Virus record (IMG/VR): IMGVR_UViG_3300040815_002027
DNA: 64,000 bases
Reading direction: 5' to 3' (one strand)
Source of the DNA: a virus
Positions 16,014-64,000 of the stretch are shown here, one piece after another. How positions within the stretch are numbered: the first letter of the stretch is position 1; each line of letters begins with the position of its first letter. The position numbers were made by a program, and so were the translations under genes. The notes below the pieces were generated by a model. That model made no database searches. It had not been told where the DNA came from and saw only the letters and a list, made by a program, of their open reading frames with translations.

Positions 16014-17192
16014 ATGTCTAAAAAAAATAAAGTTGAGGGGGATGCCCTTCTGAATATAGGTAGGATGTTGACTGATGAGCTGAATAAGCACTACAAGAAC
16101 TCAGACAACAAGGCTTACTTTTTAGGAGAAGAGGAGGAAGCCGTTTCTAGTGTTACAGATTTTGTGTCCACTGGATGTACTCCTTTAGATTATGCTATTG
16201 CAAATAGGAGGAATGGTGGTATACCTGTAGGTAGGATTACTGAGATATACGGATTAGAAGGTAGCGGTAAATCTTTATTAGCCGCTCACCTTACTAAGTC
16301 TACACAACAAAAAGGCGGTCAAGTAGTCTACATAGATACTGAAAGTGCTGTAAGTAAGGAGTTTTTCTCTGCTATAGGTGTAGATTTAGATCGACTTATT
16401 CTAATACCTTTATCGGCTATAGAGGATATTTTTGAAACAATAGAAAAAGTTATTCATTCTTTTAGAGAGAAGAGTAAGGATATTCCTTTAACTATTATCG
16501 TAGACTCTATTATGGGGGCTACTACAAAAAAGGAGTTTGAGTCTGATTATCAAAAAGACGGATATGCTACTGACAAGTCTATTATAATCAGTAAGGCTAT
16601 GAGAAAGATGACTAACTTTGTAGGTATTAAGAAGGTAACTTTAGTATTTACTAATCAGTTAAGAATTAATCTTAATGCAGGTCCTTTTAGCCCTGATAAA
16701 TATATTACAAGTGGGGGTAAGGCTATTCCATTTGCCGCTTCTGTTCGTATACGTTTGAAGAGGGTAGGTAAGATACCTACACAAGGCACTGAGCTTTTAG
16801 GTTATAAGACAGAAGCTACTATTGATAAAAATAGATTAGGACCTCCCAAAAGAAAAGTTAATTACAGTATCTACTTTTCTAGAGGTATGGATGATATTGA
16901 TAGTATTTTAGAAGCTTTAGTTGACTATAACATTATAAGTAAGACTGGTGCTTGGAACTCTTTTACGTATAAAGACAAAGTTACTGGGGAGAAACATGAT
17001 ACTATTAAATTTCAAAATAAAGATTTTGTAGATTTAGTATTTAGCGATCCTTTATATAACGAGTATCTTTTAGATGAACTTGAGAAAGCTATGGTCATCC
17101 CTTATGATCCAGATAGTACTTTTGAAAAGATCTCTTACCAGGAAGATTCTAGTAAGCCTTTAGATGCTGATAGTATATTAGACTTTGACTAA
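16014..17192 (+). CDS. recA: RecA/UvsX recombinase
   Basis: GGIPVGRITEIYGLEGSGKS, YIDTE, IIVDS, FTNQLR, TSGGKA..F.ASVR. Confidence 0.92.
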   Translation: MSKKNKVEGDALLNIGRMLTDELNKHYKNSDNKAYFLGEEEEAVSSVTDFVSTGCTPLDYAIANRRNGGIPVGRITEIYGLEGSGKSLLAAHLTKSTQQKGGQVVYIDTESAVSKEFFSAIGVDLDRLILIPLSAIEDIFETIEKVIHSFREKSKDIPLTIIVDSIMGATTKKEFESDYQKDGYATDKSIIISKAMRKMTNFVGIKKVTLVFTNQLRINLNAGPFSPDKYITSGGKAIPFAASVRIRLKRVGKIPTQGTELLGYKTEATIDKNRLGPPKRKVNYSIYFSRGMDDIDSILEALVDYNIISKTGAWNSFTYKDKVTGEKHDTIKFQNKDFVDLVFSDPLYNEYLLDELEKAMVIPYDPDSTFEKISYQEDSSKPLDADSILDFD

Positions 17193-20616: not shown

Positions 20617-23370
20617 ATGTCGTACGATAAATATTATTGGCTTAATGATGATGCAAGAACTTTCTTATCAAGAGGGTATATACAAGAATCTGCCGAAGAA
20701 AGAATTAAGGAAATAGCAGATGCTGCTGAAAGATTATTAGGTATCCAAGGGTTCTCTGAAAAGTTTGAAGACTATATGTCAAGAGGTTTTTATAGTCTTT
20801 CTACTCCTGTGTGGGTTAATTTCGCTAAAGATAAAGGACTGCCTATAAGTTGTTATGGCTCCTATGTTGATGATAGTATGGATTCTATGTTAGATGTTAC
20901 AAAAGAGATTGGAATGATGTCAAAATATGGAGGAGGAACTTCTGCTTATTTAGGTGATATACGGCCAAGAGGTGCTTCTATAAGAACTGGCGGTAAGGCT
21001 GATGGACCAGTACATTATGCTAAACTTTATGATACTGTTATAGATGTGTGTAAACAAGCTGAAGCAAGACGAGGTGCTTGTGCTGTATACTTACCCGTAG
21101 AACACGATGATATTTTGGAATTTTTAGATATTGCCACAGAAGGTAATCCTATTCAAAATTTACAGTATGGAGTTACTGTTGGAGATGAGTGGTTACAACA
21201 TATGAAAGATGGGGATTCCTATAAGAGAAAAGTTTGGGCGAAGATTATACAAAGAAGAGGAGAGATTGGACTTCCTTATATTATGTTCAGAACTACAGCT
21301 AACCTTAATACTCCTTACAAGTATTTACCTTATACTATAAAAGCGTCTAATCTATGTTTAACTTCTGATCAAAGGGTTGTTACCTCAAAAGGGTATTTAA
21401 CAGTACAAGAACTCTATGAAAGTGAGGAGGAGCTAATTTTGTTTGATGGAGAGAAAGAAGTTAAAGCATCAAAAATGTTATTAAGGGATGATAATTCAGA
21501 AGTTCTTAAAATAACTTATTCAAATGGAATGTCTCAAAAAGTAAGTCCTAATCACGGAATAGCTGTGTTAAATGATACTAAAAAAGATATAGTAAGAGTA
21601 GAGGCTAAAGATTTAAGAATAGGAGATTATGTTGCTACTCAAACTAATAAAGGTATCTTCGGAACAGTAGATATGAAAGATGAAGCATTTTTATTAGGAT
21701 TATATCAAGCAGATGGAACACAGCATAAAGATTCGATTATGATTGATATATGGGAAAATGATTTTGATTTAGTAGATGAAATCCAAGAAAAATTTAATAA
21801 AATACATTATGAATATGGTTGTGATACTTATCAAGTAGTTAATCAAACGGGCAAAACTAATTCTGTAAGAAAAAGAAAACCAGCTGAGTTCGTTGAGTGC
21901 TGTACTAACCAATCTACAGTTAGAAAGAAACGATTAACTTCAAGAACTTTAAAAAAAGCATTAAACTTTGAAAAAGGGTATGTTCCATCTTGGGTATGGG
22001 AGGCTAATGAAGAGACTGTATGGTCATATTTAAGAGGTCTTTTATATGCAGATGGTACAGCAAATTTAGGAACTTCTAACGGTAATCCATTACAAATAAG
22101 TTATGCTTGTATCAACAGAGGCTTTTTGGAAGAATTACAAGTATTATTTACAAATTTAGGACTCTCTTCTTCTATAAAAATATTAAGACATGCAGGAGAA
22201 ACTTTATTGCCTGATGGTAAAGGTGGTCATAAATATTATAATACTCAAGATTGTTGGCGATTAATATTTTCAAATAAAAATGATGCTTTAAAAATAGAAG
22301 AAAAAACATCTTTCCTAACAAGAAAAGGTGTGGTTATAGAGTCAAGAGATTACAGAGATAATTCTAAAAAAAGAGCAAAGGTAATATCCATAGAAAAATT
22401 AGAAAATGAACCAGTATACTGTCCGACTGTTTATACTGATGAGCATATTTTTGTTTCAAATGGGTTGAAAACTTTTAATTGTTCGGAGATAATGCTCCCT
22501 TCAGATGATGATGTATCTTTTGTTTGTTGCATAGGATCTATAAACTTACTACATTGGGATGAGATAGAGAAAACAGATGCTGTAGAAACCTATGTTTATT
22601 TTTTAAATGCAGTAATGGATGAGTTCATACAAAAGGCTTGGGATTTACCAGGAATGAAGAAAGCTCATAGATTCGCAAGAGAACATAGGGCAATAGGTGT
22701 AGGAGTTTTAGGGTATCACTCTTTACTTCAGTCTAAAAATATAGCTTTTGAGTCCTTACAAGCAAAGCAATACAATCATAAGATTTTTAGTACATTAAAA
22801 GAGCGTACAGATAAGGCTTCTCAAGATTTATATATGTCTATGCCTACAAAGTATCAATGTGTTAGAGATGGATATGCTAACTCTACTTTAATGGCTATTG
22901 CTCCTACAAAATCAAGTTCTTTTATTTTAGGTCAAGTATCTATGGGTATTGAGCCTATTAAGTCTAATTACTTCGTAAAAGATTTAGCAAAGATAAAGAC
23001 TGTATATAAGAATCCTTTCTTAAAAGCAGAGTTAGAAAAGTATAGTTTAGATACCGAAGAAGTTTGGGATAGCATTCTTAAAAAAGATGGATCCGTACAG
23101 CACTTAGATTTTCCTACAAAAGAAGTGTTCAAAACTTTTGTAGAGATTTCTCCAAAGGAAATAATTTTACAAGCAGCACAGAGGCAGAAGTATATAGACC
23201 AGTCTCAGAGTTTAAATTTACAAATACACCCTTCAATACCTGCTAAAGATATTAATCAACTATATTTATATGCTTGGGAGGAAGGTATCAAAACTCTGTA
23301 CTACCAGTTTAGTCAAAACTCTGCACAAATGTTTTCAAGAAATATTTTAGAATGTGTAAGTTGTGAGTAA
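20617..23370 (+). CDS. nrdA: Ribonucleotide reductase class I alpha subunit with intein
   Basis: STPV..N, PISC, SNL[intein]CSEI, APTKSSS, IDQSQSLN, KTLYY, C-terminal CVSCE. Confidence 0.93.
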   Translation: MSYDKYYWLNDDARTFLSRGYIQESAEERIKEIADAAERLLGIQGFSEKFEDYMSRGFYSLSTPVWVNFAKDKGLPISCYGSYVDDSMDSMLDVTKEIGMMSKYGGGTSAYLGDIRPRGASIRTGGKADGPVHYAKLYDTVIDVCKQAEARRGACAVYLPVEHDDILEFLDIATEGNPIQNLQYGVTVGDEWLQHMKDGDSYKRKVWAKIIQRRGEIGLPYIMFRTTANLNTPYKYLPYTIKASNLCLTSDQRVVTSKGYLTVQELYESEEELILFDGEKEVKASKMLLRDDNSEVLKITYSNGMSQKVSPNHGIAVLNDTKKDIVRVEAKDLRIGDYVATQTNKGIFGTVDMKDEAFLLGLYQADGTQHKDSIMIDIWENDFDLVDEIQEKFNKIHYEYGCDTYQVVNQTGKTNSVRKRKPAEFVECCTNQSTVRKKRLTSRTLKKALNFEKGYVPSWVWEANEETVWSYLRGLLYADGTANLGTSNGNPLQISYACINRGFLEELQVLFTNLGLSSSIKILRHAGETLLPDGKGGHKYYNTQDCWRLIFSNKNDALKIEEKTSFLTRKGVVIESRDYRDNSKKRAKVISIEKLENEPVYCPTVYTDEHIFVSNGLKTFNCSEIMLPSDDDVSFVCCIGSINLLHWDEIEKTDAVETYVYFLNAVMDEFIQKAWDLPGMKKAHRFAREHRAIGVGVLGYHSLLQSKNIAFESLQAKQYNHKIFSTLKERTDKASQDLYMSMPTKYQCVRDGYANSTLMAIAPTKSSSFILGQVSMGIEPIKSNYFVKDLAKIKTVYKNPFLKAELEKYSLDTEEVWDSILKKDGSVQHLDFPTKEVFKTFVEISPKEIILQAAQRQKYIDQSQSLNLQIHPSIPAKDINQLYLYAWEEGIKTLYYQFSQNSAQMFSRNILECVSCE
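21355..22479 (+). mobile_element. Intein (375 aa) with LAGLIDADG homing endonuclease in nrdA
   Basis: Starts CLTSDQRV, ends KTFN followed by C; FLLGLYQADG and YLRGLLYADG motifs; excision restores SNLCSE. Confidence 0.92.
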
Positions 23371-52723: not shown

Positions 52724-54010
52724 ATGAACTACTATAAGATAAAAAGAAAACAAGTAAAGCGTGATGCTGAAGAATCTTATTACTACGGCACTTCTATAGT
52801 ATATAGGATGTATCCTAATAAGAAGCAGGAGGAGTGGTTAACTGAGATAGGCAACAAATGTCGGGGAGCTTATAACAAACTGGTAGAAGAGTTCTGCCAA
52901 AATCCAGATAAACCCAGGAACTTACCTGGAACTTCTTTAAAGGAGATTAATAGGCTTAGACATTATTTAAAAGAGTTTGACTGGTTAGATGATGTTCCTT
53001 CTATATTTTTGTATAATGTTTGTAATAATTTTATTAAAGGAGTTGATAACTTTTATACTCAAATTAAAAAGAATAAAAAGATATTAGAGAAAGATCCTTA
53101 TGCTACAGTTAGAAAAACAAGTCCCCCTAAAAAGAAAAAGTCTTATAGAGACCTGCATTTTGGGTCTAATAACTCAACTATAGAAAGAAGCACTGCTATT
53201 GACTATGACAACAATAGATATTATTGTTTTACGAAAACATTAAAAAGATTAGGTATTAGTGATTCTTTTAAGATAAAATGTCACAAGAAGTTTTATAATA
53301 GCAAAATAAAAAGAGTTTCTTTTATGAGGGACAGTTCTATGTGTTGGTATGTGTCTTTTGGTTTGGAGCTTCCGCAAATAGATAGGTATGATAAAATTTA
53401 TGTACCTAAAGATAATAGTTTAGGTATAGACTTGGGTGTAAAAACCGCAGCTACTACTTCTGATGGGGTAAAATTTCACCCTCCAGTAGAGCAGATAAAA
53501 AAGTTGGAGAAGAAGATAGATGTTTTAAATAAAGTTATTAGCAGGAAACAAAGATTAGATAAAAAGAATTACTGGAAGAGTAATAACTATAGTAGGGTGT
53601 TGGAGAAGAAGTACAGAATACAGAAAAAGATAAATAACATAAGAGCTAATTATAACGAGTATGTATCTCATGTTCTTACCAAAGGAGAGTATAATAAGAT
53701 TCAGATGGAAGATCTTAAGTTAAATTTTATGGTAGAAAAAAGGAAGAAGAAGTTTGGTATGAGTAGATCGGCAACTCGTTTAGGTTTGGGAAGTTTAACT
53801 AATAAGATAAAATCTAAATCTCAGGTAAGAGGTATAGAGTTTAATAAAATAAATCCTGCAAACACAACTAAGTATTGTAGTAATTGTGGACATATAGAGA
53901 ACAGTTTAACTCTTAATACAAGAGAGTGGACGTGTCCTAGATGTGGTGTTGACCACGATAGAGATATAAATGCTGCAAAAAATATTCAAAAAAGTTTGGA
54001 TATTAGATAA
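52724..54010 (+). CDS. tnpB: CRISPR-associated TnpB/Cas12f-like RuvC nuclease (428 aa)
   Basis: YRMYPNKKQ..CR..YN (OrfB HTH), RuvC-I GIDLGVK, RuvC-II MEDL, CSNC/CPRC Zn finger, RuvC-III DRDINAAKNI; array starts 240 nt downstream. Confidence 0.92.
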   Translation: MNYYKIKRKQVKRDAEESYYYGTSIVYRMYPNKKQEEWLTEIGNKCRGAYNKLVEEFCQNPDKPRNLPGTSLKEINRLRHYLKEFDWLDDVPSIFLYNVCNNFIKGVDNFYTQIKKNKKILEKDPYATVRKTSPPKKKKSYRDLHFGSNNSTIERSTAIDYDNNRYYCFTKTLKRLGISDSFKIKCHKKFYNSKIKRVSFMRDSSMCWYVSFGLELPQIDRYDKIYVPKDNSLGIDLGVKTAATTSDGVKFHPPVEQIKKLEKKIDVLNKVISRKQRLDKKNYWKSNNYSRVLEKKYRIQKKINNIRANYNEYVSHVLTKGEYNKIQMEDLKLNFMVEKRKKKFGMSRSATRLGLGSLTNKIKSKSQVRGIEFNKINPANTTKYCSNCGHIENSLTLNTREWTCPRCGVDHDRDINAAKNIQKSLDIR

Positions 54011-54026
54011 AAGGTTTGTAGATTTA
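53995..54026 (+). promoter_or_regulatory. Putative Bacteroidota-type promoter for guide RNA and array
   Basis: TTTG(53995)-N20-TAGATTTA(54019), one mismatch to TAnnTTTG. Confidence 0.5.
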
Positions 54027-54049
54027 CGATCTAAGTAAGTTCATTGAAA

Positions 54050-54250
54050 TAATCGCCCGTGTGTAGCGGGTTTAAAGGCTTGCAGATATAGCGTCAACCC
54101 CTTCTTTGCTACGCAAGTGGTAAAGTCGCTCAAAATCTTTCTTTAAAATGAAAGCGAGAGGCCGAGAGGACGCTAGGCGGCTAATGTCGAAAGACATAAC
54201 GTGTGAGAACACACGAAATATCTTTTAAATTGTAGCCTTTGTATAGTTAG
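54050..54250 (+). ncRNA. omegaRNA-like / tracrRNA-like scaffold with 3' anti-repeat
   Basis: Locally GC-enriched; stems TAGCGTC/GACGCTA, ATGTC-GAAA-GACAT, CGTGTG-AGAA-CACACG, AAAGGCT/AGCCTTT; 54216-54235 complementary to the repeat. Confidence 0.75.
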
Positions 54251-54921
54251 GGTGTATACCACCACAATTTGAAAGGTGTTTACAACTAATGTTAGACAAA
54301 AAAATAAGTATAGCTTGGTATATAGCACCACAGTTTGAAAGGTATTTACAACGGAAACTTAGGTTACCTACTATCTGCTGAAGGTGTATACCACCACAGT
54401 TTGAAAGGTATTTACAACGAAAACTTAGGTTACCTACTATCTGCTGAAGGTGTATACCACCACATTTTGAAAGGTATTTACAACCAAATGAAGAACGATG
54501 CACAATAAGATGTAGGTGTATAGCACCACAATTTGAAAGGTGTTTACAACAGATCTAAAAGAAGAAGCAGAAAAACTTTCAGTGTATACCACCACAATTT
54601 GAAAGGTATTTACAACTAGTACCTATAGTATCAAAGTTAAATCAGAGGTGTATACCACCACAGTTTGAAAGGTATTTACAACTTATGTTATGAAGGTAGT
54701 ACTCCTTATATTGGTGTATACCACCACAATTTGAAAGGTATTTACAAACGGTGTCTCTTTAGCATCATAATTTTAAAACTGTTTACAACATAGCGACATC
54801 AATGTCGTTACCATAGATGGCTGTATACCACCACAATTTTAAAACTGTTTACAACATAGCGACATCAATGTCGTTACCATAGATGGCTGTATACCACCAC
54901 AATTTTAAAACTGTTTACAAC
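54251..54921 (+). CRISPR. CRISPR array: 11 repeats of 36 nt (GGTGTATACCACCACAATTTGAAAGGTATTTACAAC), nine 30-nt spacers (7 distinct) and one collapsed spacer
   Basis: Repeats start at 54251, 54317, 54383, 54449, 54515, 54581, 54647, 54713, 54754 (degenerate), 54820, 54886; 66-nt period except R8-R9. Confidence 0.97.
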
Positions 54922-54938
54922 ATTAAAAAATCAAAGTT

Positions 54939-55334
54939 ATGAAAAGAATTAGTTTAGTTTTAGTATTACTGTTATCAGCATATCTTGGGTATTCACAAAA
55001 AGGCCAGGATATTGTCTCTTTAGAAGAGATCTTAGAAACTATAAACACTGGCTTGGAAGATCAAGCCTTTGAAAAATTACGGCAAGAAGCACACTCCAAA
55101 GAAGATAACGTTATCTTTAATGTAAAGTATCTATATCCTAATGTATGTTACAGACAACTAATAACTAAAGCAACAGGACAGAAGCTTTATATACAGGTAG
55201 CTTGTGATGCTATACACGCTAAGAATGGTCTTACTTTTAAAGAAGAAGAGGCGTATGAAAGATACCAGTTTCTTATAAAGAACAAACGTAAATTTGATAG
55301 ATTAGATAGAAGAATAGAAAGAATGCACAATTAA
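54939..55334 (+). CDS. Secreted hypothetical protein
   Basis: Signal peptide MKRISLVLVLLLSAYLGYSQ; starts 17 nt after the last repeat. Confidence 0.65.
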   Translation: MKRISLVLVLLLSAYLGYSQKGQDIVSLEEILETINTGLEDQAFEKLRQEAHSKEDNVIFNVKYLYPNVCYRQLITKATGQKLYIQVACDAIHAKNGLTFKEEEAYERYQFLIKNKRKFDRLDRRIERMHN

Positions 55335-56872: not shown

Positions 56873-57490
56873 ATGAATACAGTAGAGTTGATTGGGTATT
56901 ATGGTAGTGATTTAACCCACGCACAAAGTGCCTGGACCAGTACAAGTAGAGATTTGAGTGATGAGAAGTTATCGAGAGTTCCTGCCCTTCTTAAAATGTT
57001 GGCAGAAAATGGACATCATACTCCGTTTGAAAAAAGTACACTACACTTTTTAGTTACTGTCGACCAGGCATCTCATATCCATTTATTAAAACATCGTATA
57101 GGTGTGAGCATCAATGGGGAGAGTGCAAGGTATAAAGAACTTAAAGAAGATAAAACATATATACCTCAAGACTTTCCAAAAGAATGGCAAGGTAAGTTAG
57201 AGGTGTTTTCTCAAGCATCAAACAACTTATACCATAAGTGCCTGGAAGAACTTACGCCAATACTTGGTAGGAAAAGAGCAAAGGAATCAGCAAGATTTTT
57301 TAAGACATTTAATAGTCAGATTACTATGGATGTTTCTTTTAATTGGAGAAGTTTTTACCACTTCTTATCTTTAAGAAATAAACCTGATGCTCAAAAAGAA
57401 ATACAAGAGATTGCACAGCAGATGTTAGATTTGGTTCTTGATATAGAAGGCAATCCATTTAAAAATACGATTATAGCTTTTGGGTTATAA
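56873..57490 (+). CDS. thyX: FAD-dependent thymidylate synthase
   Basis: H.TPFE, HLLKHR...S.N.ESARY, N.RS..HFL.LR....AQ.EI. Confidence 0.9.
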   Translation: MNTVELIGYYGSDLTHAQSAWTSTSRDLSDEKLSRVPALLKMLAENGHHTPFEKSTLHFLVTVDQASHIHLLKHRIGVSINGESARYKELKEDKTYIPQDFPKEWQGKLEVFSQASNNLYHKCLEELTPILGRKRAKESARFFKTFNSQITMDVSFNWRSFYHFLSLRNKPDAQKEIQEIAQQMLDLVLDIEGNPFKNTIIAFGL

Positions 57491-57534
57491 CCCTAAACTT
57501 ATACTTAGACTTAAAAGTTTTTAGGGGTATAACC
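57483..57534. repeat. Inverted repeat GGTTATAACCCTAAA / TTTAGGGGTATAACC
   Basis: 14/15 complementary arms with GTT...AAC ends, overlapping the thyX stop. Confidence 0.7.
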
Positions 57535-57544
57535 ATAAAAATAC

Positions 57545-57671
57545 AACAAGGAGGTGAGTACGCTTTAGTTGAGAGGTAGAGTGGATTAATTGCCGAAAAA
57601 GGGTTTGTAGTAGGTAGACGTTCCTCATTGCACTCAACAAGAAACCCTGAAACACCCAAAGCCTCCTTGTT
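57545..57671 (+). ncRNA. Candidate structured ncRNA
   Basis: Closing stem AACAAGGAGG/CCTCCTTGTT; inner GTTGAG/CTCAAC; crossing AGGGTTT/AAACCCT; T run after. Confidence 0.5.
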
Positions 57672-57705
57672 TTTTGTTTACTATATTTATATATAAAGTA
57701 AAGAT

Positions 57706-58248
57706 ATGAAAGATTCGAGAAAGCTTTTAGCAACCATTGCAAAGGGATATTTGAGTGAAGAATTAAATCATAATATAGATGGGATAATAGCATATCATAG
57801 AAGCCCCAAAAAATTTTATGATTTTAAATTGTCAAATGTTAGTTCTGACAGTAATAGACAGAGATATGGGTGGGGGTTATATTTTTCAAACAGTATTCCA
57901 AATACGCAATATGGTGATTATTTATATCAAGTAAGTCTTTTTAAAAATAAGAAACAGTATGTTTTAATTGATTTAAAACAACCAGTTGAAGGACTTATAG
58001 TTAATAGGATTGTAGAAGCACTTAATCATTATAACAAAAAATCTGATGAAGTTGTTGAGTTTGCTTATAATGGATTTTTGTTTTATAAAACGTTATCAAG
58101 AATTTTAGGTGGTGATAAAAACGCATCTTTGTTTTTATCTAAAAATGGTATAGATGGGTTACTAAATAAAATAACTAAAAATTGGCACGATTATATATTA
58201 TTCAATGACGATAATATAATAATTGATGAGATTAAATATGACCCATAA
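57706..58248 (+). CDS. Putative ADP-ribosyltransferase-fold protein
   Basis: AYH.S...F..F, YG.GLYFS, YG..LY.V, GIDG pattern of ART-PolyVal-like domains. Confidence 0.55.
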   Translation: MKDSRKLLATIAKGYLSEELNHNIDGIIAYHRSPKKFYDFKLSNVSSDSNRQRYGWGLYFSNSIPNTQYGDYLYQVSLFKNKKQYVLIDLKQPVEGLIVNRIVEALNHYNKKSDEVVEFAYNGFLFYKTLSRILGGDKNASLFLSKNGIDGLLNKITKNWHDYILFNDDNIIIDEIKYDP

Positions 58249-58376
58249 AAATAAAACAAAAAGAATGTTACGATGAAAATTAATACGAAGATGAAACGTA
58301 GCATTGCATATAACTGTTTGTTAATCCAATATGCTTCTGGCTATGTTTTGCAACTATTTATTAATAAAGTAAAGGT

Positions 58377-58871
58377 ATGAAAGATTCGAGAAAGCTTTTA
58401 GTAACCATTGCAAGAGGGTATTTAAATGAAAATATTGAAGATTATTCAAAATGGAAACGTAAAAATGTAACTTTGCGTGGAATGAAAGAATTAGGTAAAG
58501 CAAATGAAGTATATGGTTCTTTTGGAAAAGGATTATATACAGTACCTTTAAGTAATAAAGCAATGGCAAAACAATATGGTAAAATATATTTTGTTGTAAA
58601 TGGGATACCAAGAAAACCAAAAATTGTTGATTCATTAAATAATGCTGAATTGTTAAGACAAAAATTAATTAATGATTTTTGTAAAAAACATAACGAAGAT
58701 TATAGTCCTCGTTTTTTTGAATCAAATACAACTATGGAAGATGAAATGTTAAAGTTGGGTTATGATGGTCTTATAATAAAAGGTAGAGAGATGGTTAACT
58801 ACACCCCAAAGGATATTAAATATTTTAAAAATGAAAATGATTTACAACGTTACTATGAAGCACTTTCATAG
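58377..58871 (+). CDS. Putative ART-fold protein sharing its N-terminal leader with 57706
   Basis: MKDSRKLL.TIA.GYL.E leader; LRG, FG.GLY, A.QYG..Y, GYDG.II...E.V.Y. Confidence 0.5.
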   Translation: MKDSRKLLVTIARGYLNENIEDYSKWKRKNVTLRGMKELGKANEVYGSFGKGLYTVPLSNKAMAKQYGKIYFVVNGIPRKPKIVDSLNNAELLRQKLINDFCKKHNEDYSPRFFESNTTMEDEMLKLGYDGLIIKGREMVNYTPKDIKYFKNENDLQRYYEALS

Positions 58872-59537: not shown

Positions 59538-59567
59538 TACTCTCGTTTATATTTATAGTAAAAGCTA

Positions 59568-60062
59568 ATGAAACTTACAAAACTTTTAGAGACAGTTAGG
59601 GAAGATTTCGTAAATGAAGATATTAACCGTGATAAGTCAAGGAAAGTGTTGTTTGTTGATGGACACGGGAAACAAATTGTTTACGATGATGGTGCTTTTA
59701 GGATTGCTGTTGATGATAAAGATGATGCACTATATGTAACTTTATGGCATAAAGAAGATGTGAAAGGTAAAGAGTATTGGGTTAAACGTGGGTACATAGA
59801 TGCTTGGAAGAGTAAAATGAACTTTAAAGATAGAAGTGGTACTTATTTATCTATTCGTTCAATAGAAATTGAGAATAAATATAGAAATAAGGGGTACGGC
59901 ACAAAGTTATACAAAGCTCTATTTGATTTTTCAGCAAATGATGTTAAAGGTGTTTATTCTTACTTACCAAATAGGGTTAATAAAAAACAAGTGCCTAAAA
60001 TATATAATAAATTAGGTGCTATTACTGATGGTGATTACCAATTTATTGAGTTTAGTAATTAG
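59568..60062 (+). CDS. GNAT acetyltransferase
   Basis: YRNKGYGTKLY acetyl-CoA motif, Y.KLG. Confidence 0.75.
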   Translation: MKLTKLLETVREDFVNEDINRDKSRKVLFVDGHGKQIVYDDGAFRIAVDDKDDALYVTLWHKEDVKGKEYWVKRGYIDAWKSKMNFKDRSGTYLSIRSIEIENKYRNKGYGTKLYKALFDFSANDVKGVYSYLPNRVNKKQVPKIYNKLGAITDGDYQFIEFSN

Positions 60063-60110
60063 TGATAAAACAAAAGTATTTAAAATATTAATTAATTAAA
60101 AGTTACAAAA

Positions 60111-62059
60111 ATGAATTACAAAGGTTTTGATGTACAGATTGAGATTAAGCAGTACAAAAATGGGGGAGATGCTATCTATCTAATAGATAAGCAGGACCAT
60201 TCACCAGTAGCAGTAGCAACAAGTTGGATTGAAGGTTTAGAACCTGATGAGTTAGCCATTAAAGATTATAGTGAGAATGAAGGTATATATAGATGGTTAG
60301 TAGACAATAATATTGTTACTCCATCCGTTAGAATGCTTTATGGATTTCCTATTTGTAAATTAGTTAACAATTAAATAAAAAAAGTTATGGAAAAGCAAAT
60401 TAAAAACTTAATCGAATTAGCAGAGCAGTATTACCAATATGCCATAGAAGAAGATTTCCCAAGTGGACACACCTGGTTACAGACAGACTATGGGGAGGTT
60501 GGGGTATACTTATCCACTTACAGTAGAAGAGATTACTCAGTGAAATTCGATGGCGAAGTGGAGGTTGCAGGATATGCAAATAGAATAGCAATGGGATTTA
60601 CTGCCACTTCAGAAACTTTAGAGAAATTATATAATAACTTTTCAAAATATCTTAAAACTGAAAAAGATAAGATTCAAGAACAAGTAGCAGTCCAAAGAGC
60701 TGAGAAGATAAAAAATTTGGAAGAAGAACTATCAAGATTAAAAAACTTATGAATAGGTTCACTTTCTTAAAAGTCTATAACTCTCCATTTAAGCCATTCC
60801 TACCTAAGTTATATATAGGTAGGATGACTATTGGAGTACCTTACTTTTATTCTCGTAAAAAAGTAGGGTTTGACCTTGTAGGCTTAGGTTATAAGACAAA
60901 GTGGTCAGATACTGACTATAGGTTCGAGTATAATCCTATATGGTCATTTACATTTTATAAGTGGCAGATTGCTTTAATCTTTGCACCTATTGAATGTAAC
61001 TATTATTGGCAGGCTTGGTTGTACTACTTTTACAATACTAAAGGTACGAAGGAAGAAAGGATAAGAGAATGTAAGAAGGAGTATCCACTTAAAATTACAG
61101 TAAGTGGTGTAAAGGATGGGAGGAGGTATGAGTATAGTTACGATGCGTATGATAAAGTTTTAAAATCGTAAAAATTATGGAAAACGAAGAAGTAAAAAAC
61201 AACGAAAAATATTCAATACCAATCTATGAGAATGGTGTGAAAACTGAATGGACTATTGATGGTGTAATAGGTGATGAAAAATATTTTGAGTTGTTGAAAT
61301 ATGGAAATGGTAAAGATTTACCTGATATGGTTAATGTTGGCGTAAAGAAATAATTTTTATATTTTATAACTTTTTGTTAATTCAAGTTTTTAAACATAAA
61401 ATTATGGAAAGAAATATAAGCGAAACACCCGAAAAATGGGTAATATTAAAACTACCAAATAATTACTATAAAGTTTTTGGAACTTGGGCTGGTGGTTATT
61501 TATATGGTGACAGATATAGATTAAATTCTGGAATTAGTAAAGTAGAACAAGACGAAAACTTTTATTATTTTATTGGATTTAGTGGAAGTTGCTATAAGTG
61601 TCACAAAAAAGGATATGGAACAGCGACATCTTACGGGTTAGGTGTTTTAAATAAAATAATAGAACAAGGAAACGGACAGATTGAGTTAATGGAAGATGCT
61701 GACGATTGGATAAATGTGGTATAACTATTTATTAATTAAAGTTTTAAACCTATCGAAATCGATGCCTTTAATAAATTACTAACAATTAAATTTTTAAAAT
61801 TATGAAAATGTATTATTACAATCCAAACAATTATAGTGCTGAATTTTTCGTTATGGCTGAAAACAAAACAAAAGCACATGAATACTTATTAAAACATTTA
61901 GAAAATAAGATTGTATCTGAAAGTTGCTATGCTGAGATGTATCAAGAAGATTTAGAAATATGGAAAAAAGTAAATCCCTTGGATATTAAAACATTTCCAG
62001 GTAAATATACTTTGGATGAACATGAAATTGGTTCAGTTATCGAATCTGAAATTGCTTAG
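60111..62059 (+). CDS. Six small hypothetical ORFs (60111, 60387, 60749, 61177-61353, 61404, 61802)
   Basis: + strand ORFs with A-rich leaders, several followed by the AACTATTTGTTAATCCAAG repeat. Confidence 0.6.
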
Positions 62060-62154
62060 TGGTTGCACTTTCGTAGCATTGTGTATAACTATTTGTTAAT
62101 CCAAGGTTTTAAACCCATCGAAATTAAGGGGTTTGTAAATTAAAAACAGATAAA

Positions 62155-62460
62155 ATGGAATTAAAAAGAGTTATTGAAACATTAGAAAAACATCAAGAGT
62201 GGAGGCGTGACCAAAACGTACCACCAAAAGTAGAAATGCAAAGCCCTATTGAAATAGGAGCAGCTATTGATTATGCAATAAGCGAGTTAAAAAAATTGCG
62301 TTTATCTGATGTTGTAAAATCGTTGCCTAAAGACACAGACGGATGCAATATAAACAGTGTTAGCAACTATTTTCACTGCCAAAGAGAAGAAGAGATGGAA
62401 AGTAAATGTCAAACACAATGTGAACACTGTAAAGAATATTACAAACCATTAGAGCAATAA
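62155..62460 (+). CDS. Hypothetical mosaic protein spanning GTT junctions
   Basis: ORF; internal GATGTTGTA and AGTGTTAGC read as DVV and SVS. Confidence 0.55.
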   Translation: MELKRVIETLEKHQEWRRDQNVPPKVEMQSPIEIGAAIDYAISELKKLRLSDVVKSLPKDTDGCNINSVSNYFHCQREEEMESKCQTQCEHCKEYYKPLEQ

Positions 62461-62466
62461 TATTAC

Positions 62467-62529
62467 TGCCAACGTTTTGGCTATGTGCCGTATGACGATA
62501 GGAATATGGACATATAGCCGTTGTTGTGC
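62467..62529. repeat. attC-like stem-loop
   Basis: TGCCAAC, 5 nt, GGCTATGTGCCGTAT...ATATGGACATATAGCC (one bulged A), 3 nt, GTTGTGC. Confidence 0.7.
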
Positions 62530-62563
62530 ATAGTAGCGGATTAATTAACTAAAGTTTGAATAA

Positions 62564-62749
62564 ATGAAATTACAATTCTTAACAATCGAAATTGATGGAA
62601 AATGCTTTGACTTACCAAAGGATATGCAGATTCCGCAGAAAGGTAGCACTGTATTTATTGAGGGTAAAACAGGGATAGTTGAAAACATTCACTACCATAT
62701 AGTAGACGGAAAAGTACACATGATAAGCATTTTTGCTACGAAAGGGTAG
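62564..62749 (+). CDS. Hypothetical protein enclosed by 15-bp inverted repeats
   Basis: GTTGTGCATAGTAGC (62523) / GCTATTATGCACAAC (62749). Confidence 0.65.
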   Translation: MKLQFLTIEIDGKCFDLPKDMQIPQKGSTVFIEGKTGIVENIHYHIVDGKVHMISIFATKG

Positions 62750-62804
62750 CTATTATGCACAACTATTTGTTAATCCAAGTTATTAAGATAAAAAACAATA
62801 AAAG

Positions 62805-62966
62805 ATGAAAAAGTACAGAATTACAATTAGAACCAGTTTTGGGTCATTTGAGATTGATGACATTGAAGCACAAGATGAGGATGAGGCATTTGATAAGGCT
62901 TGTGAAGAGGCTAAAAAAGAAATTGATTGTGCAAAACTGGATGAAGTTTATGAGTACGATTCTTAA
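62805..62966 (+). CDS. Small acidic protein (53 aa, not in ORF track)
   Basis: MKKYRITIRTSFGSFEIDDIEAQDEDEAFDKA... Confidence 0.65.
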   Translation: MKKYRITIRTSFGSFEIDDIEAQDEDEAFDKACEEAKKEIDCAKLDEVYEYDS

Positions 62967-63018
62967 TGGTGCATAACGGTACAGTATAACAGTAGTGCGG
63001 ATAATTAAAAACAATAAT

Positions 63019-63225
63019 ATGGATAAGTACACGAAAAAAGCGGTGTTTAGTTACTTAAAGAAGTATGACCACATAGCAAACGAAGAGGACTTTATAGAAG
63101 TTACTGAATGGAAAAACGGTGAAGGATTTGATGTAGAGATAGTTGGAAAATTAAGTACAAGGTTTCAATTAACTTGGGGTGAATACACCGCTTTGAAGAA
63201 GTTGGTTAAAAAACTTGATGGTTAG
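63019..63225 (+). CDS. Hypothetical protein enclosed by 15-bp inverted repeats
   Basis: GTATAACAGTAGTGC (62984) / GCATTACTGTTATAC (63225); EVTEW.NGEG.D motif. Confidence 0.65.
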   Translation: MDKYTKKAVFSYLKKYDHIANEEDFIEVTEWKNGEGFDVEIVGKLSTRFQLTWGEYTALKKLVKKLDG

Positions 63226-63323
63226 CATTACTGTTATACATTGTTGTAGTGTCGTTTTAATGCACTACAACGGCTACAGGTATGGCAATGTAATTTTACG
63301 GATTTGAAACACGGAAATTAATT

Positions 63324-63560
63324 ATGGACAAGATAGATAGATTAAAGCAATTACTTCTGACACACAGAACAGAAGATATAAGCAAATTAACATTTGAAGA
63401 AAGGATTGATTTTGACGATGCGTTTGCACAAGAGATAGTAAAATTATTTGCTATACCTGATGTTATAGAGCCGAAGGGAAAGTTAAAATGCGAATGTAAA
63501 GATGAGTGGATGGAAGATGTTATTTATGTTCAGTGTAGTAAGTGTGGTGAAAAGTACTAA
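63324..63560 (+). CDS. Hypothetical protein with C-terminal Zn ribbon, fused across an IR junction
   Basis: KLFAIPDVI encoded by IR arm plus GTT core; CEC...CSKCG. Confidence 0.6.
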   Translation: MDKIDRLKQLLLTHRTEDISKLTFEERIDFDDAFAQEIVKLFAIPDVIEPKGKLKCECKDEWMEDVIYVQCSKCGEKY

Positions 63561-63615
63561 CGCATTTTAATTCTCTATAACTATTTGTTAATCCAAGTTA
63601 TAAAAATAAGGAACA

Positions 63616-63984
63616 TTGGCAAATAAAAATAAAGACCTTAAATTAGTAAAAGTTGGTACTGTTCGAAAACATATGGATGCGCATTTTAGAGATGAAATCA
63701 GCTACTCTGAAGCAGTTAATAGAATAAATAAAGAAGCAAATAAAAATATGAGAAATATGAAAGCAAAATTAACATTTATACTGCCAGAAGATAGGTACGA
63801 ATATGACATGGCAGTCAATGGAAGCAATTGGCATCACGTTGCTTGGGAGATGTACCAATACTTGAGAGGCAAAACTAAATATGCACCAGATGATGCTCAT
63901 GAGGAGTACACTCAAGCAATGTCTGATTGTAAGGATAAGTTGTTTGAAATTATGCGAGAAAACGGAGTAGATTTTGACTTATGA
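63616..63984 (+). CDS. Hypothetical protein (start uncertain)
   Basis: ORF with TTG start; internal MKAKLTF.LPED module. Confidence 0.5.
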   Translation: MANKNKDLKLVKVGTVRKHMDAHFRDEISYSEAVNRINKEANKNMRNMKAKLTFILPEDRYEYDMAVNGSNWHHVAWEMYQYLRGKTKYAPDDAHEEYTQAMSDCKDKLFEIMRENGVDFDL

Positions 63985-64000
63985 GAAAATCAAAGTTTGA

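Follow-up and report, generated by a model that had tools for sequence, protein, structure and literature searches.

The 3´ end of a 64,000-nucleotide (nt) stretch of viral DNA (IMG/VR record IMGVR_UViG_3300040815_002027; hereafter, the window) carries a run of inverted repeats that meet at AAC/GTT cores and are either empty or closed around a small open reading frame (ORF). A reading of the letters alone, here called the original prediction, had described this run as an integron/attC-like cassette architecture, raising the question of what the repeats are and whether genes are exchanged by way of them. We found that positions 62479-63581 form a chain of stem-closed units, best read as a short run of promoterless cassettes, each closed by a helix, that circulate among Bacteroidota phages. 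What passes between unrelated genomes is a cassette with its entire helix, and the helices are under selection, as seen from covariation and conserved G·T wobbles.

All of the strong inverted-repeat units in the original prediction were present, and all features of the chain are on the + strand. The chain opens with an empty unit, a local hairpin at 62479-62519 found in both the minimum free energy (MFE) and the centroid fold, directly 5´ of the left arm of the first cassette. This arm, GTTGTGCATAGTAGC (62523-62537), is followed by GGATTAATTAA and an A/T-rich leader and pairs with the right arm GCTATTATGCACAAC (62749-62763); the 15-nt inverted repeat is 93% complementary, and its sole mismatch is a G·T on the + strand. 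The cargo is an ORF of 61 amino acids (aa; 62564-62749) with no Pfam or PHROG family, whose TAG stop overlaps the right arm. In the second cassette, the left arm GTATAACAGTAGTGC (62984-62998), followed by GGATAATTAAAAA, and the right arm GCATTACTGTTATAC (63225-63239) enclose a 68-aa ORF (63019-63225), with the first base of the right arm being the G of the TAG stop; this inverted repeat is kept or compensated in relatives. Both 15-base-pair (bp) stems contain one G·T and span from ~25 nt 5´ of the ATG to the stop codon. A 9-bp canonical junction hairpin, GTTGTAGTG-TCGTTTTAATG-CACTACAAC (63243-63271), comes next; it lies within a covariance-model match at 63221-63274 (64.7 bits, E 3e-13) and is the sole copy that the model finds in the window. 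The chain closes with a 78-aa ORF (63324-63560), the two halves of which are separate stem-closed modules. A 53-aa ORF (62805-62966) between the two cassettes has a weak bracket only, in which 62753-62765 pairs with 62964-62976 and so reuses part of the preceding right arm; this unit terminates in GCATAAC followed by GG (62971-62979). A weaker pair that had also been proposed, 62359/62467, was discounted: it is 7 nt long with an A·C mismatch, lies inside an ORF and looks like chance.

Stems of this quality are rare in shuffled DNA. When ungapped stems (score ≥34, loop ≤450) were counted in 14 block shuffles, ~1.1 were found per 64 kb, which corresponds to ~0.02 expected in 1.2 kb, versus the 2 observed (~100-fold more). 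Given that each of the two also exactly flanks an ORF, we conclude that they are not due to chance, and the concern that such repeats might be equally common in shuffled sequence can be set aside. Folding 62470-63600 as + strand RNA recovered every strong unit, in the MFE and centroid structures alike, with an energy of -253 kcal/mol compared to -184 kcal/mol for the - strand. A test of duplexes between the start and stop regions of 92 ORFs also singled out this region, the three top-ranking but one being its three ORFs; since duplex energies are inflated through long interior loops, ungapped stem scoring was used instead.

The junction hairpin is one member of a large family. Matches to GTT-N6-TCGTTTTAATG-N6-AAC came from at least 119 IMG/VR contigs, and 109 of 123 hairpins, among the matches listed, were paired at all 6 variable stem positions. 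In a prokaryote genome collection, 53 of 123 matches were fully paired, the remainder being distributed as chance predicts; about two-thirds of the paired genome loci with listed titles were labeled as Bacteroidota (Flavobacteriaceae, Bacteroidales and one complete Formosa chromosome), and the rest were mixed-label bins of metagenome-assembled genomes. An alignment of 75 copies had 97.7% of cells paired and 148 double-sided changes versus 37 in shuffles; because 14 imperfect copies had been excluded beforehand, the unfiltered 109 of 123 is the fairer figure. The 11-nt loop TCGTTTTAATG is conserved in sequence, as are the wobble positions, in more than 100 genomes. At the core, position 5 is T in 82% of copies, rather than R, and 60% of copies read GTTA...TAAC. 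The idea that arm sequences differ while pairing is kept is thus borne out by covariation, and the units are structure-defined. The hairpin was also considered as a mimic of the repeat of a Cas13b-type CRISPR array, which reads GTTG...CAAC; this was set aside given the predominance of GTTA...TAAC and a length of 29 nt, not 36. A scan with the degenerate motif AACTNNNTNTTAATNCAAG gave single-copy, chance-like matches only. A keyword search of the literature returned no description of such elements, and a full-text search with the loop sequence matched only unrelated primers.

The 16 nt immediately 5´ of the hairpin, consensus ATTnnTTATATACnnT, correspond to a covarying right arm. In 48 of 86 non-redundant cases this arm has a complementary partner 30-650 nt upstream, compared to 2 of 86 in an equal downstream region and 0 of 86 with the arm reversed. 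Local pairing of the right arm with the next left arm was rejected, the distant bracket winning by 84 to 2. We also rejected the box as a promoter, since it covaries with its distant partner; the TTTG...TAnnTTTG promoter is not in ATTnnTTATATACnnT, and a TATATTTG reading is possible in a minority of copies only, though Bacteroidota -7-type boxes (TATATTTG) do occur upstream of some genes in the window. Among mismatches in the brackets, with partners searched by Watson-Crick scoring only, G·T outnumbered A·C by 97 to 5, which indicates that it is the sense strand of a single-stranded nucleic acid that folds. This bias bears on the idea that the units are invertons, in which an invertase would flip each small gene on or off by way of its inverted repeats. 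The usual signature of Bacteroidota invertons is a pair of 15-23-bp inverted repeats around a 120-260-bp segment, which the repeats fit. Conserved G·T mismatches and a 97:5 strand bias are unexpected for double-stranded recombination sites, however, and the orientation of the cargo relative to the asymmetric arms was identical in all fetched relatives. No invertase was found in a 70.8-kb relative that continues the genome beyond the window or in a census of carrier genomes, and we regard inversion as highly improbable.

What the brackets enclose is consistent from case to case. Loops of 140-590 nt were found in 59 cases, and a single ORF fills the loop in 39 of these; the stop codon of these ORFs lies between 9 nt inside and 9 nt before the 16-nt right-arm window, most commonly at its first three bases, and the left arm mostly ends 3-33 nt upstream of the ATG. 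Left arms have a near-universal 5´ neighbor, (T/C)AAC-G-N4-6, and consecutive helices, which open with GT and close with (T/C)AAC or ATAC, are spaced by 2-6 nt. A cassette is therefore one small ORF, coding segment or short non-coding payload closed by a sense-strand stem, with the 5´ arm ~15-30 nt before the start codon and the 3´ arm beginning at the stop codon; the next element is usually a 9-10-bp TCGTTTTAATG hairpin. The payload is non-coding in 11 cases with loops of 66-77 nt, which comprise several unrelated sequences (L225:3870-3946, L242, L246, L263, L275, L288, L333 and L334). These payloads were rejected as tRNAs by ARAGORN and Rfam, and Rfam returned only ordinary tRNAs on ten payload-bearing loci; conversely, no bracket helices were found around tRNA clusters. 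One payload, found in L225 and L299, includes a pair of boxes that resemble the T arm of a tRNA (GGTTCGATTCC and GGTTCGACTCC), yet gave no tRNA call. A second non-coding class, 213-374 nt long, starts with ACCCCT and ends with AGGGG.

These features would also suit a purely RNA-level device, in which leader-trailer helices together with a protein-binding or processing hairpin set the ends, stability and translation of each cistron, and cassette borders match helices merely since selection keeps functional units whole. The conserved sense-strand wobbles, the placement of the arms exactly between leader and stop codon and the + strand fold that recovers every helix are in line with this view, as are the helices around both non-coding classes, which continue into the payload as GGGG/CCCC. 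In addition, TTAAAA, which is complementary to the loop UUUUAA, is present in 41% of the 40-nt leaders of 59 cassettes versus 5% of payload-internal control segments (the copy in the window is at 63004-63009); the enrichment could reflect contact between loop and leader, or merely the A/T-rich composition of the leaders. On the other hand, the junction is present only 1-2 times per complete genome of 94-362 kb, which fits imported cassettes rather than genome-wide transcript punctuation. Selection alone also poorly explains the TAAC-flanked inserts and the repeated in-frame joins at the same GTT described below, and neither the 70.8-kb relative nor the 37 window ORFs scanned yielded a gene for RNase III, though a host enzyme could act. 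Overall, a device acting on RNA alone is unlikely. Separately, in locus L347 (3220-3640, - strand) and other family members, additional conserved boxes reading AAGCAC(G) follow the left arm and precede the right arm; these boxes allow a perfect GTGC/GCAC instead of the wobble GTGC/GCAT and may make the element a switch with two alternative folds.

Exchange is evident for the 68-aa cassette, which belongs to a family of more than 125 members and was found in at least 12 phage contexts that are unrelated to one another. Comparison of the window copy with 11 other contigs revealed 79-93% nucleotide homology that is confined to the cassette. Homology starts at 62961-62984, in or just 5´ of the left arm, and stops either where the right arm does, at 63240, or inside or at the far edge of the hairpin, at 63260-63272. 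The flanking genes are unrelated by protein and by DNA, with contexts that include crAss-like genomes, and in 8 contexts the sequences diverge completely beyond the final AAC. The hairpin stems that accompany this cassette differ and yet are always complementary (GTTGTAGTG, GTTGTAGCA, GTTGTGCAA, GTTGTAAAA and GTTAGCAAA), and one lineage has compensated changes in the arms, A-T to T-A, C-G to G·T and G-C to A-T. No cultured phage was found with a close 68-aa cassette. For the 61-aa ORF, 11 homologues were detected. The original prediction implied that gene gain and loss in relatives would break at the cores, and relatives do break at stem feet and AAC/GTT cores. The units bound promoterless single-gene or gene-segment cassettes, and exchange at the core between unrelated replicons was seen.

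An all-against-all comparison of the fetched loci also yielded filled and empty versions of the same site. At a site where L119 has a single CATAAC, an insert is present in L118 (412 nt) and in L120 (502 nt); both inserts have CATAAC on each flank and begin with G, TTGA and the left arm. Similarly, L277 has a 746-nt insert between copies of GCTAAC, of which L281 has one. Each insert thus lies between direct repeats of 6 nt that end in TAAC. Elsewhere in these phage groups, indels were associated with 9-21-nt direct repeats of unrelated sequence, indicating that short-homology events are common in these genomes. The cassette block inserted in L118 also contains, at 2240-2300, three tandem copies of TGAGGGAATAAC, each of which ends in a TAAC core.

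Exchange at the same joints extends into coding sequence. The 78-aa ORF is composed of an N-module (63277-63299 paired with 63438-63459), encoding residues 1-47 (ending in IPDV), and a C-tail module (63462-63492 paired with 63561-63581), encoding the Cys-rich residues 48-78; both helices were recovered as inverted repeats and in the fold. The N-module has CAAC followed by GGCTA immediately 5´, and its right arm lies within the coding sequence, where the nucleotides are nearly invariant among diverged homologues. The left arm of the C-tail module consists of GTTATAGAG and AGTTAAAATGCG with a 10-nt bulge between them, and the right arm, CGCATTTTAATT-CTCTATAAC, has a terminal TAAC followed by a junction motif. 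Homologues of the 78-aa protein are ~80-98% identical over residues 1-47 and then continue into at least five unrelated tails, whereas P0142 joins a different N-terminus to the tail found in the window. Protein homology breaks at the GTT of 63462 (codon V47), the opening bases of the next helix, and the five or more C-tails are joined in frame at this GTT, each with its own covarying GTT...AAC stem. In three other contigs, for example, the tail is closed by GTTGTAGG/CCTACAAC (twice) or GTTAGCC/GGCTAAC, compared to GTTATAGAG/CTCTATAAC in the window. The left boundary of the N-module is always AAC followed by GG (4 contexts); the same left arm follows four different upstream contexts, L468 having a single compensatory change from A-T to G-C. 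The unrelated N-module of L118 terminates in the same arm-encoded IPDV.

Part of the pattern of AAC ends comes from a conserved motif. The AAC ends at 62761 and 63579 double as the first bases of a 19-nt lineage-specific junction motif, AACTATTTGTTAATCCAAG, which follows the 61-aa cassette (62761-62779) and recurs exactly at 62087-62105 and 63579-63597 and in diverged form at 58312, 61368 and 61723. These 6 matches, versus 0.16 expected in the window, all lie within 58.3-63.6 kb, and L002 and L004 share the motif, where it precedes different genes. In L001, the closest relative (98% identical), 61166-62086 is replaced by ~980 nt of different genes, with only the right breakpoint at the junction motif: homology is regained at 62086, the base before the copy of the AACTATTTG... 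motif at 62087. L001 is also without a 164-aa gene at 59568-60062 (difference 59540-60088). The adjacent paralogues at 57706-58248 and 58377-58871, which share the N-terminus MKDSRKLL.TIA.GYL and diverge beyond it, each have a copy of the motif before or after them.

How far, then, does the likeness to integrons go? In both systems the cassettes are promoterless, mostly single-gene and sense-oriented, with folded, strand-specific ends that vary in sequence while pairing is kept; an AAC/GTT core is at the joint, the 5´ end of the cassette pairs with sequence at its own 3´ end, and unrelated genomes can share a cassette. The geometry differs. The classical attC site has R'' (RYYYAAC) on its 5´ side and R' (GTTRRRY) on its 3´ side, whereas each phage helix has GTT 5´ and AAC 3´, the reverse order. 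Bouvier and colleagues are said to have found in 2005 that attC folds on the bottom strand, in contrast to the sense strand here. The phage stems are perfect, whereas attC stems are imperfect with extrahelical bases; the conserved 11-nt TCGTTTTAATG loop contrasts with the variable attC loop; and the phage helices are 2-6 nt apart with no 50-140-nt attC. No IntI, attI or Pc platform was found, and the cassettes sit in phage genomes. The integron-like architecture of the original prediction therefore holds for structure-defined units, promoterless cassettes and breakpoints at cores, but not for attC sites served by IntI: the element works like an integron, yet is not an integron.

The original prediction had also reported no integrase in the window, and no tyrosine recombinase was found among the 37 ORFs scanned out of 67 of at least 100 aa (all 28 of at least 250 aa, six of 190-249 aa and three below 130 aa, with ORFs 5, 57 and most smaller ones outside the scan). 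The 70.8-kb relative, which with the window brings the sequence searched to ~130 kb, had no match to PF00589 (tyrosine recombinase), PF00239 or PF01797, and neither a serine recombinase nor a Y1 transposase was detected in this relative or among the 37 window ORFs. Among 13 hairpin-carrying phage genomes (≥90% complete, 35-362 kb), a tyrosine recombinase was found in 3 and not in the other 10.

The census weighs against a model in which the system is integron-like in mechanism too, the helices being recognized by a dedicated trans-acting enzyme that cuts single strands at the (T/C)AAC core and inserts or excises cassettes. The candidates would be an HUH enzyme (IS200/IS605, IS91 or REP-RAYT type) or a tyrosine recombinase of the host that treats the helices as it would attC; the enzyme would probably be host-encoded. 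Such a model would account well for structure-defined, strand-specific ends with a conserved core, for precise inserts that are bounded by TAAC repeats and open with G(G), 4 nt and the left arm, and for one cassette in at least 12 unrelated contexts without common flanking homology. Promoterless cassettes co-oriented with upstream genes also resemble integron cassettes, and conservation of loop and wobble positions, the main reason for keeping a dedicated factor in consideration, is what a protein recognition site predicts. Besides the missing enzymes, however, the reversed geometry, the lack of extrahelical bases and the folding of the sense strand argue against attC-like recognition, and a site-variable 6-nt repeat (CATAAC, GCTAAC) suits microhomology or target duplication better than a fixed 4-nt core. 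We consider a dedicated enzyme of this kind doubtful. Slightly less doubtful, though still tentative, is an undescribed gene-shuffling system of Bacteroidota phages in which a non-integrase trans-acting factor reads the loop and the (T/C)AAC foot and moves promoterless cassettes between unrelated phages, perhaps through a single-stranded DNA or processed RNA intermediate, the joints serving as in-frame splice points for exchangeable C-terminal tails.

The single-strand "peel and paste" elements of the IS200/IS605 type, with their cargo-carrying or REP derivatives, share several features with the phage cassettes: strand-specific folded hairpin ends, possible passenger genes and insertion 3´ of a specific short oligonucleotide, a copy of which lies at the 3´ end of the element itself; a TnpB gene is also present in the window, at 52724-54010. 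In contrast to these elements, the cassette ends pair with each other, rather than each forming its own hairpin, and the single local hairpin is on the 3´ side; the Y1 transposase (PF01797) is absent from the 70.8-kb relative, the small ORFs of the window having been scanned in part. The leader-trailer stems of rRNA and the RNase III sites of T7 early mRNAs are likewise long-range sense-strand helices that enclose a complete unit of a polycistronic transcript. The phage helices differ in moving together with their cargo and in occurring only sporadically in each genome, and their processing role is putative.

A further related system is the promoter-early stem-loop (PeSL) cassette of T4-type phages, which combines a strong sigma70 promoter with a terminator hairpin and is present in ~50 copies per genome (Arbiol et al., 2010, PMC2839356). 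PeSLs also are short conserved intergenic stem-loop modules between small ORFan early genes of a hyperplastic region, and genes are gained, lost and replaced between phages at these modules with no dedicated recombinase, the phage's own recombination being implicated (PMC2839356). Gene exchange between phages at the modules is equally seen here. Unlike PeSLs, the canonical junction has no Bacteroidota-type -33/-7 promoter and is present in 1-2 copies per genome, though AACTATTTGTTAATCCAAG, with its 6 copies in 58.3-63.6 kb, is closer to PeSL behavior; whole-gene long-range stems are absent from PeSLs, and the phages that exchange cassettes here are unrelated and have only ~6 nt in common at the joint.

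With moderate confidence, we favor a PeSL-like logic in which short-homology recombination or template switching at the conserved feet, aided by the stem, exchanges the cassettes, while the helices also serve as elements for transcript insulation, processing or stability. Exchange would then occur without a dedicated integrase, by short-homology recombination or by replication template switching at the stem feet, with the stem bringing both repeats together. The homologous-recombination proteins encoded by the window, a RecA/UvsX-like protein (16014-17192), a flap nuclease and a PD-(D/E)XK nuclease, may act in this process. In the transcript, the stems may insulate, process or stabilize a promoterless cassette, which could make it functional in whichever operon receives it. 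Where no stop codon is present at the 3´ arm, read-through into the next helix would give proteins with swappable C-terminal tails.

Several points weigh against this account. Repeats of 6 nt are short for homologous recombination, and filled and empty pairs are compatible with insertion and deletion alike. In some homologues of the 61-aa and 68-aa ORFs, one or both arms are missing; the armless 68-aa homologues are the more distant ones, and some 61-aa homologues retain the right arm only. The two differences in gene content from L001 have four breakpoints, of which three lie away from AAC/GTT cores. Conservation of the loop and of the wobble positions suggests a sequence-specific factor, which a short-homology model does not need, and a recombinase or transposase encoded by the host may be the agent. 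Finally, the RNA role is one that we infer, because a folded DNA strand gives the same G·T bias.

Outside the T4 group, there is little explanation for how small early-region ORFans, often with anti-defense or host-takeover functions, move from one phage to another, unrelated one. The family described here is a concrete and widespread answer, marking a portable gene pool in marine, lake and gut Bacteroidota phages, for the mining of which it supplies exact cassette borders, and showing that a nucleic-acid joint can be the point at which protein tails are swapped. A dedicated enzyme, if there is one, would represent a new single-strand recombination system; if not, RNA or DNA structure alone would define recombination modules.

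The window itself is part of a large tailed phage with 32% G+C and all genes on the + strand. In addition to the recombination proteins above, its products include a tail sheath, a family A DNA polymerase, a gp32-like protein, a DnaB helicase, glycosyltransferases, ThyX, TnpB and a ribonucleotide reductase whose large subunit (20617-23370) is interrupted by an intein with a LAGLIDADG domain. No GenBank phage had DNA similarity to the window, and Rfam gave no relevant match for the whole window at the gathering threshold or for 61300-64000 at E≤5. The chain of stem-closed units sits at the 3´ end among small ORFan genes, none of which has a Pfam or PHROG family. Further upstream, 52724-54939 comprises the gene for the 428-aa TnpB (Cas12f1-like TNB, OrfB_IS605) and, behind it, ~10 repeats of 36 nt with a 66-nt period and TTTACAAC ends, in a CRISPR-array-like layout. 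We also noted a 215-nt intergenic stretch at 57490-57706, closed by ACAAGGAGG...CCTCCTTGT and followed by a T run. This candidate non-coding RNA has no Rfam match and is 77% conserved in the distant relative L002 (1668-1799).

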